Below are positions 17,058-23,901 of a DNA stretch of 26,302 nucleotides, piece by piece. The notes below the pieces were generated by a model. It saw only the letters and a list, made by a program, of their open reading frames with translations. It searched no databases and was not told where the DNA came from. How positions within the stretch are numbered: position 1 is the first letter of the stretch; each line of letters begins with the position of its first letter. The translations under genes and the position numbers were made by a program. The stretch spans positions 1 to 26,302 of the forward strand of contig JBDRIG010000110.1 of NCBI GenBank assembly GCA_043816185.1, given 5' to 3'. The stretch is from Elusimicrobiota bacterium (GTDB taxonomy: Bacteria > Elusimicrobiota > UBA8919).

Positions 17058-19220
17058 TTACCACTTCGAATCGTATTGCAGCTTGAACGTGTTTTCTCTT
17101 TTCCCATATTCTACATTTCCATACCCATCAGCATCACTTATTGTATGCTCATACTTGAACCATATACTTGCATCTTTTGAAAGTTTCTGGTCAAACTGTA
17201 TGTAGCATCTTGTACCTTTTGATGGATTTCCCATAATACTTGTTGTCCAGGCAACAAACACATTTTTCCAATATGGTTCCGATTGGGTTACATATTCATC
17301 AGGTGCATCAAAAAATATCATTCTGACATTAATATTTAAATCTGGTGTAATTTTATATTTTACGTCGCTAAATATCATTTCGCCAGTTGTGATTTCATTT
17401 ATTTGCTCAATCTTTTTTCTTCTATGCTCGTATCTTGCCATATAGCGTATATTTTTTGAAGCGTCCCATTTTATCTGTAGTCGTGTTTTTCTTAATACCT
17501 TCGGGAAATCATTACTATCTTCCTCGAAACTTCCACCTTGTGGCAGTGCCCTTACTTTTGAATAAATATCCCATTCTCTAAAAAGAAGTTCAAAATTACT
17601 GTAAATTTTATATTTATATTCAAGGTAAAAATCAACTCCATTAAAAGAACCAATTGGCCTTGTTGATTGTGAGGATATAGAAAGTGGTTTGTAGGCAGGC
17701 ATATTAAAAATACTTCCAGATAGATGAGCCGAATGTGCCTTTTTTGTATATTCAGTACCCGCAAAAAAACCTTTTTGACTTCTAACCTCACTTAAACCAT
17801 AGTCGGTTTCCATGCTGGTACTTATCGTCGCAACTTTTGATTTGCCAAATCTGTTATAATAATTCTGACCGTAATTATAATACCCATTCCACATAATAAT
17901 CGGTGCAATCTTGTAAACCATCTCTATTAAATATGACTGTCCCGATTGACTTCTTCCTTCGTATTTTGGCGCATCCGACCTCGCCCATTCACCAAAAAAA
18001 TTTAGATTTTTATAGTATGTATCAAATGCAAAATCGTAAAGCGAGATTTTATTGCCTCTAAATGTATAAGTGCCTGTTTCAGGATTTAATGGACGAATTT
18101 CTGGAGTATAATTTGCTGTATAGGCGAGCACCGATATATTGGTATTAGAAATAAATGACAAAAAATATTTTATGTACGTTCCGTAGAGTTTCTCTTTTAA
18201 TGTTTTGTTTGCTATTCGCTGCTCAGCCGTTCTAATATATCCACCGCCGTCATATTCTCGCCAAAGTAAAAAGTATGCATTTGCTGAGCCATCTTCATTT
18301 AATGGTGCATCGAGAAATTTTTCTGATACAAAAATCACGGTATCAAAAGCATCATATTTTTTTTCAAAAAAAGCACCACACAAGTGTTGATTGGGATTTG
18401 TTGATTTATCCTCTTTACCACCGTTTCCTTTTATTTTTATAGGTCTACCTATTTCATCTAAATTATCATAAAAAGCAAGTCCCTGATTTAATTGCATTGC
18501 ATAATTACCGAGAATAATTTTTGTGAAATAAAATGTATCATTCGTTTTCAAATAAAACTTTTTCAAATTATATTGTCTAATGTTGTCAAATGTAAATGGT
18601 GGTTCCTGATCTCGTCTGTATGCGAGAAAACCAAATTCGCGTTTGTCGTTATATTTTATACAAGTATTAGCGTAAAAATAAAATGGTTCATGATAATGAC
18701 CATAATAATCGCTTTTTGATGAATCGTCGTTGTTATAGTAATTATCGGGTGTTGAGGAAACAGGGCGGGTCGCCTTGCATCTCAATTTTATATCGCCGCT
18801 CAATACATTTTTCGTTTTTAATTTCTTTACAGTAATATATGGCTTTATCTGTTCATAAAATTCACTTGTAACGCCTTGCACATTTTTAATATCCTCAACA
18901 TCGAAAAACGATTGTTTTTTTCTGTATTTTAATATCTTTGTTGCAAGTTGTGCCGTCATATATGGAATATCTAAAAGAGAACAAACATCTGCTGAATTTA
19001 AATCAACTGGATTAAAAATTAATTGCTTTTTTATGTTTTCTCCCTCTAAATTCTGAACCTGCTCAATTACAAAAATACCTGTTTCGTCTAAATTATCGAC
19101 TTCGGAAAAATTATCGACGAGAAATGGAATCGCATTTTCTTGAGTAGCGTGCCCAATAGATGTAGCATAGAAAATTAGTACAAAATATAAAATATACCTG
19201 ATAGTTTTTACTTTACACAT
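17058..19220 (-). CDS. Secreted ComEA-like helix-hairpin-helix protein with probable outer-membrane beta-barrel
   Basis: Signal peptide; PVDLNSAD..LLDIPYM...ATKILKYR...F..VEDIKNVQGV (HhH pair); amphipathic strands; C-terminal FKLQYDSKW barrel signature. Confidence 0.75.
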   Translation of the reverse strand: MCKVKTIRYILYFVLIFYATSIGHATQENAIPFLVDNFSEVDNLDETGIFVIEQVQNLEGENIKKQLIFNPVDLNSADVCSLLDIPYMTAQLATKILKYRKKQSFFDVEDIKNVQGVTSEFYEQIKPYITVKKLKTKNVLSGDIKLRCKATRPVSSTPDNYYNNDDSSKSDYYGHYHEPFYFYANTCIKYNDKREFGFLAYRRDQEPPFTFDNIRQYNLKKFYLKTNDTFYFTKIILGNYAMQLNQGLAFYDNLDEIGRPIKIKGNGGKEDKSTNPNQHLCGAFFEKKYDAFDTVIFVSEKFLDAPLNEDGSANAYFLLWREYDGGGYIRTAEQRIANKTLKEKLYGTYIKYFLSFISNTNISVLAYTANYTPEIRPLNPETGTYTFRGNKISLYDFAFDTYYKNLNFFGEWARSDAPKYEGRSQSGQSYLIEMVYKIAPIIMWNGYYNYGQNYYNRFGKSKVATISTSMETDYGLSEVRSQKGFFAGTEYTKKAHSAHLSGSIFNMPAYKPLSISSQSTRPIGSFNGVDFYLEYKYKIYSNFELLFREWDIYSKVRALPQGGSFEEDSNDFPKVLRKTRLQIKWDASKNIRYMARYEHRRKKIEQINEITTGEMIFSDVKYKITPDLNINVRMIFFDAPDEYVTQSEPYWKNVFVAWTTSIMGNPSKGTRCYIQFDQKLSKDASIWFKYEHTISDADGYGNVEYGKRENTFKLQYDSKW

Positions 19221-20074
19221 TTTAGAGTAGGATTTTTGTGTGTTTCAAGTTTTAGAGAAAGAGAGAAAAGGTGTGTACCGCCTAAAACGGGATGTAAAAT
19301 ATATCCATAATCTATACCAATATTTTTGTTTTTTAAACCAAAACCCGACGAGAAAGATGTAGGTTGTGTTCTTACACCAAATCTAACTGCAAATATTTTT
19401 AAAAGATTTATTTCTTCAGATATGTGAAGTGTAATACCATCAAAATCGTCTGATTTACTTACATCAAGATTCGAAGTAATCCTTTCAAGTACCTTCAATG
19501 AAATACCAATTTGAAAATTCTTGCTGACTAATTCTGCTTTACTCCCAACATTTGGGCCATTAAAATTAGTGGCTGAAGAACCAATTGAAATATTATCTTT
19601 CACGTTTCCAATAAAACCACAATCAAAACCGACTGCATTTCCAGAACCATATTCTTTTATTTTCAAAGCCATATTTTTCATTGTGTAACCAAAGGCTAAA
19701 TTTTTTGTTAAATAAAATCCATGTGAAAAATAAAATTCAGTTTCACCGTAAATTGAATCGCCAAACTGGTTATAAGAAAGTCCGACTGTACCGAAATTTT
19801 TTAGATAGAGGGCAAAACTCCCCACCATATATGAAAGTTCGTTAAACCCATAAAGATTGCAATGGGTTGTAGATACATCACAAATAGAAACAATTCTTCT
19901 TAGTCCACCAGGATTGTAATAGATTGCCGATGAGTCGTTTGATAATGCTACAAACGCTCCAGATAGAGATGCTACTCTTGCGGAAGAATATCGTTGCTCA
20001 AAAGCGGAGTAAAGATATGTTGAAAAATAAAAAGACAAAAAAAAATAACCAATCTTTTTTACAGTTATTTTCAT
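19208..20074 (-). CDS. PorV/PorQ/FadL-like outer-membrane beta-barrel protein
   Basis: Signal peptide; SARVASLSGAFVALSNDSSAIYYNPGGL; C-terminal IDYGY..HPVLGGTHLFSL. Confidence 0.7.
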   Translation of the reverse strand: MKITVKKIGYFFLSFYFSTYLYSAFEQRYSSARVASLSGAFVALSNDSSAIYYNPGGLRRIVSICDVSTTHCNLYGFNELSYMVGSFALYLKNFGTVGLSYNQFGDSIYGETEFYFSHGFYLTKNLAFGYTMKNMALKIKEYGSGNAVGFDCGFIGNVKDNISIGSSATNFNGPNVGSKAELVSKNFQIGISLKVLERITSNLDVSKSDDFDGITLHISEEINLLKIFAVRFGVRTQPTSFSSGFGLKNKNIGIDYGYILHPVLGGTHLFSLSLKLETHKNPTLKCVK

Positions 20075-20252: not shown

Positions 20253-20504
20253 TTATACTCCGGGGAATAAAAACCCCCATACACTCAAATCTTCATCAAT
20301 ATCAGACCAGTGAATTCCATATCCTCCAGGAGAAATTTCAAAGTGTTTTAACTGTTTTTCTGTTGCTTTTGATAGTTTTGAATACCATGCAATAGGAATT
20401 GACAAAGTTCTACCATCGCTTAAACTAATCACCATAACATTTTTCAAAAACCTTACAAACGTAATTATAGGTGCTTTAATTTGTTCAGCGATTAAAGTAT
20501 TCAT
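20253..20504 (-). CDS. DUF2442 family protein (putative antitoxin)
   Basis: LSDGRTLSIPIAWYSKLSKAT..QL..FEIS..GYGIHWSDIDEDLSV; start ATG 20504 overlaps the end of the DUF4160 frame. Confidence 0.88.
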   Translation of the reverse strand: MNTLIAEQIKAPIITFVRFLKNVMVISLSDGRTLSIPIAWYSKLSKATEKQLKHFEISPGGYGIHWSDIDEDLSVWGFLFPGV

Positions 20505-20721
20505 GCCAGGCCTACTCAATTCTTTGAGTGTTTCCTTTCACTATATTCAAAATGTTTTTTAACTGGCCTGGATTAAAACTATGACTCCAAACAAATTGAC
20601 AAGAAGGAATCCAAAATTTTGCTTCACCACCTTATCCTATAACATGTATATGACAGGGTTCAAATCCTTCGTTGCTATAAAACAAAAAACGGTATCCCCT
20701 TAATCTAAAAACCGTTGGCAT
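20485..20721 (-). pseudogene. DUF4160 family (putative toxin) pseudogene with two in-frame stops
   Basis: MPTVFRLRGYRFLFYSNEGFEPCHIHVIG*GGEAKFW...IE*AWHEYFNR; TAA at 20632-20634, TAG at 20512-20514; GGAG RBS upstream. Confidence 0.85.
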
Positions 20722-20840
20722 TTTTATTTTTCTCCAAAAATTTCTTAATGCGATATAAATGGAATTGGGCTGAGATTTCTTTTACCGTTTAGCCAGTTGT
20801 GTAGCGTAACAAAATGAACATTGAGTTGCTTGGTAAGTTG
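20722..20840 (-). pseudogene. XRE-family HTH remnant
   Basis: *QLTKQLNVHFVTLHNWLNGKRNLSPI, then a frameshift into HLYRIKKFLEK; no start codon. Confidence 0.55.
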
Positions 20841-20989
20841 TTACAAAATACTTTTTTATATTTTTATTTTGATGAACGTAATTACAAATAACACTGGAAA
20901 TTAAAAAGCTCGGGTTGCATGAATTGGAAATTATCTTAGTTTCGAGTGTCCTATCTGGGTATAATTTTCTCCAGCGATAAAATAATTTT

Positions 20990-21361
20990 CTCAGGCGGTA
21001 GGATTCGAACCTACAACCCTCCGGTTACAAGTACCCCTAAATTTCTTTAGGGCTCGGACTATCTTATTTCCATTCCAATCCGTCTCTCGGTCGCCAGACA
21101 GAACTACGTCTGACTGTTGTCGGACAATAAAAACTGGAATCTGGAAGCGGGCGCTTCCCCCGACATATCGTTCATACCGTCGGAGTACTCCCTTACGGGA
21201 TAGTCTCTGCGCCTTACCCGATAACTATCGGGTCTTGGCTCAGGATTATCTTATACCTTTCGGTAGTTAGAATTCCCTGAATTCACCCACTTTTTCAATC
21301 ACGATTTCTCGTGAAAGCTGCCAATCGACAGCCGGATGCTCCACCATTGAGCTACGCCTGA
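20990..21361 (-). tRNA. tRNA-Asn(GTT), intron-containing (exon 1 21361-21328, exon 2 21027-20990)
   Basis: Joined exons give a 72-nt cloverleaf: TCAGGCG/CGCCTGA, GCTC/GAGC, TCCGG-CTGT|TAA-CCGGA, GTAGG-TTCGAAT-CCTAC, G73. Confidence 0.95.
21028..21327 (-). ncRNA. Group I self-splicing intron, 300 nt, no ORF
   Basis: Exon ends in U, intron ends in G; P1 GCUGU|C-GAUU-GGCAGC with U.G at the splice site; P GAATTCAGGGAA, Q AATCCTGAGCCAAG, R GGCGCAGAGACTA, S AAGATAGTCC; P7 GACTA/TAGTC; P3 GTGGGTG/CGCCCGC; GAAA-capped P2, P5 and P9. Confidence 0.93.
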
Positions 21362-21402
21362 ATTATAAATCTCCACCAAGTCATTGTACTGAATTTATTA
21401 TA

Positions 21403-21993
21403 TTAAATTTCTTTTCTTCCGTCAAGTGCGTTTATTAAAGTTACTTCGTCGCAGTATTCTATACTTCCTCCCGACGGAATACCTTTTGCAAGGCGAGTAA
21501 TTTTTATGTTGTGTGATTTCAAAAGTTGTGAAATATACATTGCCGTAACATCACCTTCAACCGTCGGATTGGTAGCAATAAGAACCTCGTTTATTCCTTT
21601 CAATCGTTTCATAAGAAGTTTTATGCTTAGATTATCAGGGTGTACTCCGTCTAATGGAGAAAGAATTCCCAATAAAATATGATAAAGTCCTTTATATTTC
21701 CCCGTTTTTTCTATAGTTTGTAAATCAATATAATTTTCAACAACGCATATTTTTTGCCTGTCCCTATCTCCCTTAAAATCTGAACATATCTCACATGGAC
21801 TTTCCTTGCATATAGAACAACAAATAGAACAGGATTTTATATTTTTTTTTGCGTCAATTATTGATAATGCTAAATTTTCAACGTCTTTTTGCGAGCTTTT
21901 CAATATAAAAAAAGCAAATCGTTCCGCCTGTTTTTGTCCAATACCAGGTAATTTTTTGAACGCATCAATAAGACGAATAAGTGGCCCAATCAT
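21403..21993 (-). CDS. recR: Recombination mediator RecR
   Basis: LPGIGQKQAERFA HhH, C4 zinc finger, ICVVE, YHILLGILSPLDG, ATNPTVEG, TRLAKGIPSGG. Confidence 0.97.
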   Translation of the reverse strand: MIGPLIRLIDAFKKLPGIGQKQAERFAFFILKSSQKDVENLALSIIDAKKNIKSCSICCSICKESPCEICSDFKGDRDRQKICVVENYIDLQTIEKTGKYKGLYHILLGILSPLDGVHPDNLSIKLLMKRLKGINEVLIATNPTVEGDVTAMYISQLLKSHNIKITRLAKGIPSGGSIEYCDEVTLINALDGRKEI

Positions 21994-22029: not shown

Positions 22030-23901
22030 TTATTTGTTATCTGCCGACGGTTTTACAACACTACCACCGAATAAATCGATAATATTCTTAACTGTCGATG
22101 TAGATGTATTTCGCAATGGCATTGTTGTGCCAGATTTTTTGTTTTTACCAATTGACGTATGCGTTAGTAGCGATGCATTCGCATCCATGATGTCATTATC
22201 CTGTTGATATGCGTCTGAGGAAAGTTCTGTATTTTCCACAACATTTTCTGTAACATTTTCTGTGCCCGAACAGATTGATTGCGTAGATTCGTCGTTAATC
22301 GTGGTATCTAAAGATGGAATCTCGTTTTCTATTTCTTCGTTTTCTGAATTATTGGTATCTCCAATTTTTGTAGTGAATTCAAATTTTCCGCCTAATTTTT
22401 CTTCCATCAAAGGAAGCCATTCGTTTTTGTTTGATAAAACTGTTTCTATTTTATATAGATTATCAAATTCAATAACAGAAATTCCGTCATTTTGAATCGA
22501 TATTTTTGTACCTGAAAAACAACTAAGAATACGAGGTCTGATTTTTTCATTTTTTAAAATTTCACTCCACGCTAAACGAACTTTTTCTTCAGACCAAGTA
22601 GGTTTGTCTATGGTGAAGGAATCAGTTTTAGCAAGTGTGGTTTTTGGTGTCACAGGAGTAGTTTTTGGTGTTAATGGTTCTGAATTTTTTGCGGCTGGTA
22701 ATTTTTTTTCTATTGATTTTTCTTCTATCGGTTTGTCTTCGTTATTTTCAAGGTTTTCTGAGGAGGAAAGGCATGGTGAAGACAATTCAAGATTTTCAAG
22801 ACGGGCTATTAGTTCGTCTAAACCGACATATTTTTGGGTGAGTTTTACGCAAAAAATTTCTAAAATAATAGATGGCTGTTCGGCATTTTTCATTTGATCA
22901 GTACAATTGGAAAGTATTTGTATTAATCGAAACAAAACATCAACAGACAAACTTTGCGAATACAATCCCAATTTTGTCGTATCAGAAACGGTTTGCACTA
23001 ATTCTGGGGAAATTTTATAAAGCATTACATTTCTAATATATTCCTGTAAATCACAAACGATGTTTAGGGGGTCGTATCCGAGCAGCACTGTTTTATCTAC
23101 AATTTGCAAAAGTTTTTTTGTTGCATTTTTTTCAATACACTCAAACATTTCCGAAAGAATATCTTCCTTAACAATTCCAAGTATAGAAATAACATCTTGC
23201 GGAGTTATATTGGTTCCGCAAAAAGATATAATTTGGTCAAAAGTACTTAAAGCATCTCTCAAAGCACCGCCGACAGATCTTGCAATTATGGCAACTGCTT
23301 TATTATCTATTTTAATATTTTCTTTTTCGGCAATTTTTTCTATCTGTACGCTTATTTCTTTTATTGATAGTGGACGAAAACTAAACCGCTGGCATCTGGA
23401 AAGTATTGTCGGAGGAATTTTTTGGGTTGATGTAGTCGCAAATATAAAAACTGCATGTGCTGGTGGTTCTTCAAGAGTTTTCAAAAGTGCGTTAAATGCC
23501 TCAGGTGTTATTTGATGTGCCTCATCTATAATGTAGATTTTATATTTTGACGACGATGGAGCGTATTTTATGTTTTCTCTTAATTCTCTTATTTGTTCTA
23601 TGCCTCTGTTTGAAGCGGCATCTATTTCCATTACATCAATAGAATTACTGTTTGCTATTTCACGACAGGAATTACAATTGCTGCATGGTTGTTGTTCTTG
23701 TATCTGTTTGCAGTTTAATGCCTTGGCAAAGATTCGAGCAACAGTGGTTTTACCAATGCCACGCTGACCTGAAAAAATATAGCCATATGCGATTCTTTTT
23801 TCTTTTATTGCGTTTTTCAATACACGTACTATATGCTCTTGACCTATAACGTCGTCAAATTTTTGTGGTCGATATTTTCTCGCTAAAACAGTATATGACA
23901 T
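22030..23901 (-). CDS. dnaX: DNA polymerase III subunit gamma/tau
   Basis: LARKYRPQ, GQRGIGKTT, EIDAASNRG, IIDEAH, NALLKTLEEPP, TILSRC, GGALRDA. Confidence 0.97.
   Translation of the reverse strand: MSYTVLARKYRPQKFDDVIGQEHIVRVLKNAIKEKRIAYGYIFSGQRGIGKTTVARIFAKALNCKQIQEQQPCSNCNSCREIANSNSIDVMEIDAASNRGIEQIRELRENIKYAPSSSKYKIYIIDEAHQITPEAFNALLKTLEEPPAHAVFIFATTSTQKIPPTILSRCQRFSFRPLSIKEISVQIEKIAEKENIKIDNKAVAIIARSVGGALRDALSTFDQIISFCGTNITPQDVISILGIVKEDILSEMFECIEKNATKKLLQIVDKTVLLGYDPLNIVCDLQEYIRNVMLYKISPELVQTVSDTTKLGLYSQSLSVDVLFRLIQILSNCTDQMKNAEQPSIILEIFCVKLTQKYVGLDELIARLENLELSSPCLSSSENLENNEDKPIEEKSIEKKLPAAKNSEPLTPKTTPVTPKTTLAKTDSFTIDKPTWSEEKVRLAWSEILKNEKIRPRILSCFSGTKISIQNDGISVIEFDNLYKIETVLSNKNEWLPLMEEKLGGKFEFTTKIGDTNNSENEEIENEIPSLDTTINDESTQSICSGTENVTENVVENTELSSDAYQQDNDIMDANASLLTHTSIGKNKKSGTTMPLRNTSTSTVKNIIDLFGGSVVKPSADNK

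Follow-up and report, generated by a model that had tools for sequence, protein, structure and literature searches.

A tRNA-Asn(GUU) Gene of an Elusimicrobiota Genome Interrupted in Its Anticodon by a Group I Intron, and the Relatives of This Intron Across Bacterial Phyla

Introduction

Can the gene for tRNA-Asn of a bacterium be interrupted in the middle of its anticodon, and, if so, by what kind of element, and where else does this element occur? This question was raised by an Elusimicrobiota MAG, in which an earlier note, made from the letters of the sequence alone, had recognised a gene for tRNA-Asn(GUU) with a group I intron in it. Herein, we follow this reading from the gene itself to its relatives in other phyla; the term “window” refers to the whole stretch of 26,302 nt that was analysed.

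Group I introns in the anticodon loops of bacterial tRNAs have been known since the 1990s. Four bacterial settings were known—Leu.3Ug, Arg.5Ug, fMet.2Ug and Ile2.5Ug, all belonging to subgroup IC3—and the number of settings rose to 21 when 80,413 bacterial genomes were surveyed; metagenomic assemblies yielded many of the cases, and a ‘Pacearchaeota’ MAG yielded one (Williams 2020, bioRxiv 10.1101/2020.01.27.920355). The statement of the earlier note that the classical introns reside in the tRNAs for Leu, fMet, Ile(CAU) and Arg, and not in tRNA-Asn, agrees with this source. The words Asn and Asp are absent from the main text of the preprint. We consider it likely that Asn at position 4 (‘Asn.4Ug’) is one of its 21 settings and has already been catalogued, since it was frequent in our own small motif scan (see below). 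In our literature searches, we came across no description of a group I intron in a bacterial tRNA-Asn, nothing linking group I introns with Elusimicrobia and, among papers citing the Williams preprint, none beyond the preprint itself. As far as the accessible parts of these texts go, some CPR tRNAs have group I introns (a remark in PMC8172020), while PMC8450103 mentions the fMet and Ile2 settings only. The ‘group I introns’ of PMC5733544 are, in the accessible part of that text, inserts of 22-49 nt in cyanobacterial tRNAs, and we judged them irrelevant.

Results

Gene structure and splice sites

On the minus strand of the window, the gene extends over 21361..20990 and is interrupted between U35 and U36, inside the anticodon. 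Exon 1 (21361..21328, 34 nt, ending ..CUGU) comprises the 5' strand of the acceptor stem, the D arm, the 5' strand of the anticodon stem and the loop nucleotides C32, U33, G34 and U35. Exon 2 (21027..20990, 38 nt, starting UAAC..) comprises U36, A37 and A38, the 3' strand of the anticodon stem, a variable loop of 5 nt, the T arm and the 3' strand of the acceptor stem; it ends with the discriminator G at 20990, and CCA is not encoded at its 3' end. The intron between them (21327..21028) is 300 nt long and ends with G at 21028. When 21361..21328 and 21027..20990 were joined by script, ARAGORN called a tRNA-Asn(gtt) with a normal cloverleaf, just as had been claimed for the removal of 21028-21327. 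The joined molecule has the anticodon GUU, the class I variable loop and the discriminator G by which a tRNA-Asn is recognised; G73 and the anticodon are identity elements for AsnRS.

The splice sites are marked on both sides. U35 (21328) pairs with intron G7 (21321) in P1 as U.G, with four Watson-Crick pairs below it, and the intron closes with the terminal G typical of group I introns, in a column that is invariant in 27/27 aligned introns. The same arrangement was seen at homologous loci, and the cut between U35 and U36 proposed earlier from the U.G pair and the terminal G could be kept. Two U-1/terminal-G junctions leave a regular anticodon arm, and a normal 7-nt loop results only from the one after U35.

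A different junction would turn the gene into a different tRNA, namely tRNA-Tyr(GUA) or, if cut after U33, a suppressor with the anticodon UUA. The first of these is what ARAGORN reports in intron mode: a search with introns allowed, suggested in the earlier note as a check, does see the split gene but calls it tRNA-Tyr(gta) with a 302-nt intron, i(31,302), a cut that breaks the U-1/terminal-G rule. Bacterial tRNA-Tyr has a long variable arm, whereas the variable loop here has 5 nt, and the host has a normal tRNA-Tyr(gta) elsewhere (ARAGORN); the Tyr call was therefore rejected. The combination of U33 and the terminal G does give a ‘tta’ call, but it leaves a loop of 5 nt, and U33 is unable to form P1 with the guide. 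In all 27 of the aligned introns, an invariant GCAGC pairs with GCUGU, with U.G at U35, and a strict script resolver returned Asn, position 4, in 29/30 Elusimicrobiota loci. We regard a junction leading to another tRNA as extremely improbable. On the same 30 loci, ARAGORN in intron mode produced Tyr, Thr, Asp and Cys calls for genes that are all Asn; it is unreliable as a splice-site caller.

Detection by covariance models and tRNA callers

The Rfam model Intron_gpI (RF00028) matches 21035-21337(-) over model positions 1-253, scoring 70.2 bits where the gathering score is 50, so that the covariance-model check proposed for this locus came out positive. The E value was 1.4e-17 in a scan of 1 kb and 4.6e-18 in a search of the whole genome. 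In the sensitive 1-kb Rfam scan, the match is flanked by two sub-threshold tRNA half-matches.

Searches with default settings give a different picture. ARAGORN on the window reports four other tRNAs and nothing at the split tRNA-Asn. The Rfam tRNA model, at its gathering score and over the whole window, likewise finds only the four other tRNAs, which bears out the expectation that standard callers miss this gene. The intron was missed in that whole-window Rfam run too, a filter effect, since the whole-genome search repeats the RF00028 match.

Intron fold and covariation

We aligned 27 introns of up to 320 nt, a limit of our own choosing, with MAFFT (21 belong to Elusimicrobiota, 6 to other phyla) and projected a hand-drawn structure of the host intron onto the alignment. 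Among its 71 invariant columns are CUGU, GCAGC, the P4 strands, GCAGAGACUA, AUAGUCC and G|UAA. Over the 66 pairs scored, 94.9% of the cells are paired, compared with 35-50% when the 3' partners are slid by 1-3 columns, although the count of cells paired favours the structure over its slid versions because it was drawn from the host intron, a bias that affects the compensatory counts less. As many as 45 of the 66 pairs change on both sides, and 0/500 shuffles reach any of these measures. Strong covariation was found in P2, P3, P5a, P6, P8 and P9; the exon part of P1, P4 and P7 never vary and are thus uninformative for or against the structure.

In detail, P1 (21317..21332) is formed by exon GCUGU (21332..21328) and the internal guide GCAGC (21321..21317), with the U35.G wobble marking the 5' splice site; this U.G pair is present in 27/27 aligned introns. 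P2 (21299..21314) is a hairpin with a GAAA loop and compensatory changes in 6/6 pairs. The 5' strand of P3 (21284..21290) pairs with 21153..21147, with 99.5% of the cells paired and 5/7 pairs changing on both sides; its 3' strand (21147..21153) was placed by the hand-drawn structure and by covariation. The P4-P5-P5a-P6 domain occupies 21217..21280, with P4 formed by 21280..21275 and 21245..21240, P5/P5a at 21272..21248 and P6 at 21232..21217; P4 is invariant, while all pairs of P5a (4/4) and P6 (6/6) covary. The 5' strand of P7, GACUA (21201..21205), which aligns to the Rfam core and is invariant in 27/27 introns, pairs with UAGUC (21057..21061), its 3' strand preceded by J8/7, in a pseudoknot with P3. 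P8 (21068..21146) is unusually long in the host, about 79 nt; the base of the helix covaries, the MFE fold gives a long stem, and the alignments show a short hairpin in most relatives. P9 (21035..21052), again with a GAAA loop, has compensatory changes in 6/7 pairs; a further 6 nt separate it from the terminal G (21028).

Between P7 and the 3' strand of P3 there are two extra hairpins (21158..21200), which we labelled P7.1 (21200..21189) and P7.2 (21185..21158). The RF00028 model treats this stretch as a 45-nt insertion, and in the 27-intron alignment all pairs of P7.1 (4/4) and P7.2 (7/7) show compensatory changes. RNAfold on the intron alone yields -103.2 kcal/mol (z = -4.5) and recovers P2, P3, P4-P6, both extra hairpins, the long P8 and P9. 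Covariation thus upholds the conserved group I core, that is, the P3-P7 pseudoknot, P4-P6 and P8/P9. Overall, covariance-model match, exon rejoining, homologues and covariation agree with the initial reading as tRNA-Asn(GUU) with a group I intron; the split gene with its 300-nt intron is confirmed as real and structurally intact. By every computable criterion the element is a group I intron, and it represents no new kind of element.

The gene in the host genome

The host assembly amounts to 1.44 Mb in 112 contigs, with 34% G+C, a completeness of 94.28% and a contamination of 0.54%; as an Elusimicrobiota MAG it indeed lies outside the Patescibacteria, as had been guessed. ARAGORN detected 41 tRNA genes in it, none of them for tRNA-Asn. 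A second copy of either exon was not found in the assembly by BLAST, by a regular expression for a GUU anticodon arm or by ARAGORN in intron mode, and the search for another tRNA-Asn, which the earlier note had asked for, came back empty for this 94%-complete assembly. The split gene is therefore what appears to be the only tRNA-Asn gene of the host; the assembly being 94% complete and in 112 contigs, an intronless one could lie in the missing part.

From here it is a short way to the supposition that the locus is a tRNA-Asn pseudogene with a dead intron, the working tRNA-Asn being encoded in the unassembled ~6% of the genome. Besides the incompleteness of the assembly, two features of the intron speak for such a case: the unusually long P8 insertion and an A at intron position 263, within the catalytically important joiner J8/7, where 25/26 relatives have G. 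Together with a C for U at position 117, this A is one of the two deviations of the host intron at the 99 columns whose conservation in the other 26 reaches 90% or more; at the remaining 97 it matches its family. Further against decay, all 12 scored helices are intact, with a single mismatch at the outer P5 pair, and both exons are 100% identical to those of functional-looking genes of relatives. No fragment of another tRNA-Asn was found in the assembly, and in other relatives, too, the tRNA-Asn detected is an intron-bearing copy. We consider the pseudogene very unlikely and keep to the reading of an intact split gene.

The fragmented state of this MAG also invites the suspicion of a mis-binned or chimeric contig that brought in an intron-bearing tRNA gene from another organism in the sample, the more so as the same intron type is found in many phyla, including archaeal-labelled MAGs that are probably mis-binned themselves. 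The gene lies inside a 26-kb contig beside recR (21403..21993) and dnaX (22030..23901), which are upstream of it on the same strand. Its exons are identical to those of relatives from the same family, the nearest kin of its intron are found within the phylum, and the contamination estimate is the 0.54% given above. A foreign origin of the contig is thus very unlikely, and we assign the split gene to the Elusimicrobiota host.

Upstream of the tRNA gene, a promoter-like site (TTGACG, 17-nt spacer, TATAAT; 21397..21425, minus strand) agrees with the consensus at 11/12 positions. It overlaps the 3' end of recR and ends about 35-36 nt before tRNA position 1; it is a consensus match only, in a region where such sites are overall no more numerous than in shuffled sequence. 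Downstream of tRNA-Asn, a terminator-like site was looked for and not found.

Traces in metatranscriptomes

Contigs of three groundwater metatranscriptome runs from one study (X1-X3) were compared with positions 20700-21700. A 189-nt contig from X1 is identical to 21086-21274, and a 151-nt contig from X2 is identical to 21023-21173; the latter reaches 5 nt past the 3' splice site and so represents precursor or DNA and not the excised intron. In X3, two contigs of 38 and 45 nt, with a depth of ~1300-1500, run up to 21027, after which the next 15 letters are those of 21328-21342; this join of 21027 to 21328 is precisely the ligated junction that was predicted. There are intronless relatives with identical exons, and X3 holds no other trace of the host, so these ligated contigs are not attributable to the host gene. 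This point leaves some room for the pseudogene discussed above.

Four other records, none of which shows splicing of the host gene, stem from other organisms. Two of them (X1 record 1, X2 record 4) represent tRNA-Asn without an interruption, and two (X1 record 2, X2 record 5) represent related genes that contain an intron. We gave no weight to missing cover in X1-X3, as over the flanks and most of the intron in X3. As a separate observation, X3 also holds a 58-nt contig (depth 11.8) that joins 21026 to 21330, corresponding to the ligated tRNA minus its three anticodon letters.

Distribution within Elusimicrobiota

BLAST with the intron alone (E <= 1e-5) detected it in 34/401 sampled genomes of the phylum, the host included, and in 24/123 genera. 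The intron is common in family f12 (16/47 genomes), and it had no match in families f4, f7 and f21, from which 89, 118 and 48 genomes, respectively, had been sampled. We fetched 30 loci from the 34 intron-bearing genomes. The script resolved 29 of them to tRNA-Asn(gtt) with a U-1/terminal-G junction after U35, and the thirtieth, L048, in which the 3' end is masked, has the same junction when read by eye. Intron lengths in these loci range from 228 to 619 nt.

A search of 40 relatives with the whole precursor found the intron in two members of the host's family, G003 and G004, and in G014 and G021 from other families, with RF00028 scores of 107.6, 71, 94.9 and 78.3 bits, respectively. The exons are adjacent and uninterrupted in G002, G006, G008, G009, G010, G017 and others; in three of these, G006, G009 and G010, which belong to the host's family, both exons are 100% identical to those of the host. 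The intron may even differ within a genus: of the congeners G004 and G007, only G004 has it.

Seven long introns from Elusimicrobiota have a sense-strand ORF in the P1 loop (L1), of 115-153 aa (67 aa in G071). These ORFs carry Cys/His motifs of the HNH type, and the Pfam HNH model gave 19.5, 18.0 and 17.8 bits on three of them, under the cut-off of 21.4. In the host intron, ORFs of at least 40 aa are absent, and with them an endonuclease of its own by which a mobile (homing) group I intron is recognised.

Other phyla and the intron tree

A scan of public genomes, one per species, with two core motifs returned at least 119 stretches, 80 of which were fetched. The script resolver identified at least 15 of the 80 as tRNA-Asn with the junction after U35. 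Among the matches listed, these came from Elusimicrobia (4), ‘Deltaproteobacteria’/Myxococcota (3) and Bacillota-labelled genomes (2), with one each from Aminicenantales, Oligoflexia, Patescibacteria, Anaerolineales, a ‘Pacearchaeota’-labelled genome and an unlabelled one. The resolver demands a perfect 5-bp anticodon stem, so loci with a 27-43 mismatch escaped it and were read by eye, which added at least 12 more Asn loci interrupted after U35, some of them cut by contig ends. Among the matches listed, the latter include WWE3, another member of Patescibacteria, three Betaproteobacteria, Binatia, Planctomycetia, Aminicenantes, a ‘Woesearchaeota’-labelled MAG and three others. The Asn setting thus occurs under at least 7 bacterial phylum labels; the archaeal-labelled MAGs that carry it are probably mis-binned.

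The same scan drew at least 42 tRNAs with the anticodon CAU and the junction after position 36, mostly from Gamma- and Betaproteobacteria, which is the classical Ile2 setting, and at least 3 tRNA-Tyr(GUA) interrupted behind U35, which among the matches listed belong without exception to Omnitrophota. Asp(GUC), interrupted after U35, Arg(UCU), Thr(UGU) and Leu(UAA) are represented by one locus each among the matches listed.

These loci bear on two statements of the earlier note. Introns at 35/36 in tRNA-Asn and tRNA-Asp were said there to have been described in Patescibacteria; for Asn, such sequences do exist in MAGs of Patescibacteria (L117 was resolved by script, L053 and L056 were read by eye), but our literature searches found no published report, and the Asp intron exists as well, but its locus (L132) lies in a Pseudomonadota MAG and not in Patescibacteria. 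The suggestion that the present host may extend the host range was overstated, because the same Asn setting is found in public genomes across many phyla.

A quick IQ-TREE analysis covered 82 intron cores and 239 columns; G004, L063, L117 and L093, whose cores were not caught by the regular expression, and the loci that the script had not resolved were left out. A group of 38 rows with 98% SH-aLRT support unites all 28 Elusimicrobiota Asn introns, 7/9 Asn introns from other phyla and 3 Tyr introns. Within it, host families and phyla are interleaved: the intron of G003, from the host's family, pairs with that of a Clostridia-labelled MAG, while the nearest rows to the host intron belong to families f25 and f27. 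The Burkholderiales CAU introns fall into a neighbouring group. The Omnitrophota Tyr introns nest inside the Asn group (96-99% support), and such a topology makes a switch of target from Asn to Tyr likely. Given the short tree search, the 239 columns and several long branches, we treat the order of events as a lead and not as a result. The best explanation of the overall picture is that the host intron is a member of a horizontally mobile lineage residing in tRNA-Asn genes of many phyla.

Discussion

Among known systems, the closest kin of this lineage, judging by its sequences, appear to be the classical introns of tRNA-Ile(CAU) from Betaproteobacteria (Azoarcus type, ‘Ile2.5Ug’, placed in IC3 by Williams 2020). 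Both kinds are small and sit in the anticodon loop, with U.G in P1, a terminal G and GAAA loops on P2 and P9, and they have near-identical core motifs in P4, J6-7 and P7; our core pattern accordingly drew the CAU loci counted above. They differ in the tRNA (Asn versus Ile2), in the site (after 35 versus after 36) and in the guide. They also differ in the region between P7 and P3', where the Asn introns have two covarying hairpins and the CAU introns scanned a different single insert; the Tyr and Arg introns have none there.

Two extra helices at this place recall the P7.1/P7.2 of subgroup IA introns, e.g., those of phages. P7.1/P7.2 are a hallmark of subgroup IA, and IC3 introns are not known to have them. 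Unlike phage IA introns, to which we liken them by description only, the Asn introns have their sequence affinity with the IC3-type tRNA introns. Kinship points to IC3, since the core motifs are common with the CAU.5 introns and the Asn clade stands beside the Burkholderiales CAU introns, while the architecture departs from the compact layout by which IC3 is defined, P7 followed directly by P3', with a 43-nt insert of two hairpins (21200..21158).

With the cyanobacterial and plastid tRNA-Leu(UAA) intron (‘Leu.3Ug’), the present case has in common a position inside a bacterial anticodon, the usual lack of an ORF and the failure of standard callers to find it. Unlike the host intron, Leu.3Ug follows position 34 of a class II tRNA and has another phyletic range, and only 1 Leu(taa) locus sharing the core pattern was among the matches listed. 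The 17 non-classical settings of Williams 2020 are similar in that an Intron_gpI match falls within a split tRNA call and the U-1/terminal-G rule applies; the ‘Pacearchaeota’ case of that survey also has a counterpart in our scan (L063). Likeness to homing group I introns lies in the long relatives with an HNH-like ORF in the peripheral loop L1 and in the patchy, interleaved distribution, whereas the host copy is without an ORF and the HNH matches of its relatives are sub-threshold (17.8-19.5 versus 21.4 bits).

How might the gene be expressed? The anatomy suggests the standard group I pathway. Transcription of the tRNA-Asn, probably driven by a promoter of its own just downstream of recR, would give a precursor of 372 nt. 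The guide GCAGC would pair with exon GCUGU to form P1 with the U35.G wobble, and a free guanosine bound in P7 would attack after U35. The terminal G (21028) would then replace the guanosine, and the freed 3'-OH of U35 would attack before U36, so that the exons become ligated into a 72-nt tRNA-Asn, to which CCA would be added afterwards. The host copy itself may be an ORF-less derivative of a lineage whose longer members carry an HNH-like endonuclease ORF. We infer that splicing occurs, alone or with the help of a protein, and that its product is the cell's working tRNA-Asn. Overall, the explanation in which the host tRNA-Asn(GUU) gene contains a group I ribozyme at 35/36, spliced in the standard manner and belonging to a mobile lineage, is in our view highly probable.

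It is tempting to go further and to suppose that the tRNA-Asn 35/36 introns form a lineage of their own, formally undescribed and derived from the classical tRNA introns. Its GCAGC guide would read the C32-U35 stretch CUGU common to the G34-U35 (queuosine-family) tRNAs, its core would be set apart by the two-hairpin insert between P7 and P3', and an HNH endonuclease encoded in the P1 loop would mobilise it. The lineage would have crossed many phyla and jumped from tRNA-Asn to tRNA-Tyr, and in reduced genomes such as that of the host every Asn codon would depend on a ribozyme. We offer this scenario in its entirety as a tentative conjecture, which may well prove wrong. If true, such ribozyme-dependent Asn codons could couple translation to GTP/Mg2+ status.

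The practical side of the case concerns annotation. Pipelines relying on the callers discussed above would probably score the host genome as being without tRNA-Asn, and the same gap applies to ~8% of the sampled Elusimicrobiota (34/401) and to many MAGs of other phyla. Split tRNAs missed in this way can distort completeness checks as well as inferences on translation or genome reduction. The locus is of use to annotators and opens a way into an intron lineage that has been poorly described; it adds a covariation-backed structure for a non-classical tRNA intron setting and gives evidence of cross-phylum mobility with an HNH ORF.

Finally, we would also like to mention that the 23S rRNA of the same host carries two insertions encoding LAGLIDADG proteins.

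Relatives of the Intron and Their Targets

Group I introns of about 200 nt are also found in tRNA-Tyr(GUA) of three Omnitrophota MAGs (L076, L077 and L098), where, as in tRNA-Asn, they follow U35. They have the CUGU/GCAG guide pairing in common with the tRNA-Asn introns, carry no insert between P7 and P3', and are placed within the Asn clade of the quick tree of intron cores. Such nesting hints that the target tRNA may have switched between Asn and Tyr within this intron lineage.

The core motif of the tRNA introns is also present in two Bacteroidota MAG loci, L068 and L119. By eye, the site of the motif looks like the T-loop of a tmRNA, and not the anticodon loop of a tRNA.

Seven long tRNA-Asn introns have an HNH-like ORF in the P1 loop, at L030 (1560-1925, minus strand), L042 (1202-1663, plus strand) and L033 (1569-1922, minus strand), and likewise at L027, L032, L034 and L044; these ORFs are of 115-153 aa, except for one of 67 aa (genome G071). 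The ends of similar ORFs are visible at L053, L096, L114 and L117, loci from Patescibacteria and archaeal-labelled MAGs. P8 of the window's own intron (21068-21146, minus strand) is about 79 nt and folds as a long stem, whereas in most relatives it is a hairpin of 20-35 nt.

Detection and Genomic Context

The gathering-threshold Rfam scan of the whole window (1-26302) did not report the tRNA-Asn intron, which scored 20 bits over the gathering score in the sensitive 1-kb scan. Introns of this kind can escape Rfam scans through default filters. Downstream of the tRNA-Asn lies a gene for a small DUF2442 protein (20253-20519, minus strand; 72.7 bits), and a 288-aa ORF at 19208-20074 had no Pfam match.

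On another contig of the same genome (C104), a 23S rRNA fragment is interrupted in domain IV by insertions of 775 nt (L002:212-986) and 691 nt (L002:1024-1714). Their matches to the Rfam group I intron model RF00028 are weak (28 and 17.9 bits), and each contains a LAGLIDADG_1 ORF (67 and 104 bits). They are two further group I introns of this small genome, besides the one in tRNA-Asn.

An Anticodon-Less RNA Contig

In the groundwater metatranscriptome run X3, full-junction tRNA-Asn contigs (depth of about 1300-1500) are accompanied by a 58-nt contig of depth 11.8, which corresponds to the ligated tRNA-Asn minus exactly the three anticodon bases and joins window positions 21026 and 21330. It possibly arose when reverse transcriptase skipped modified bases; an assembly artefact is another possible origin.
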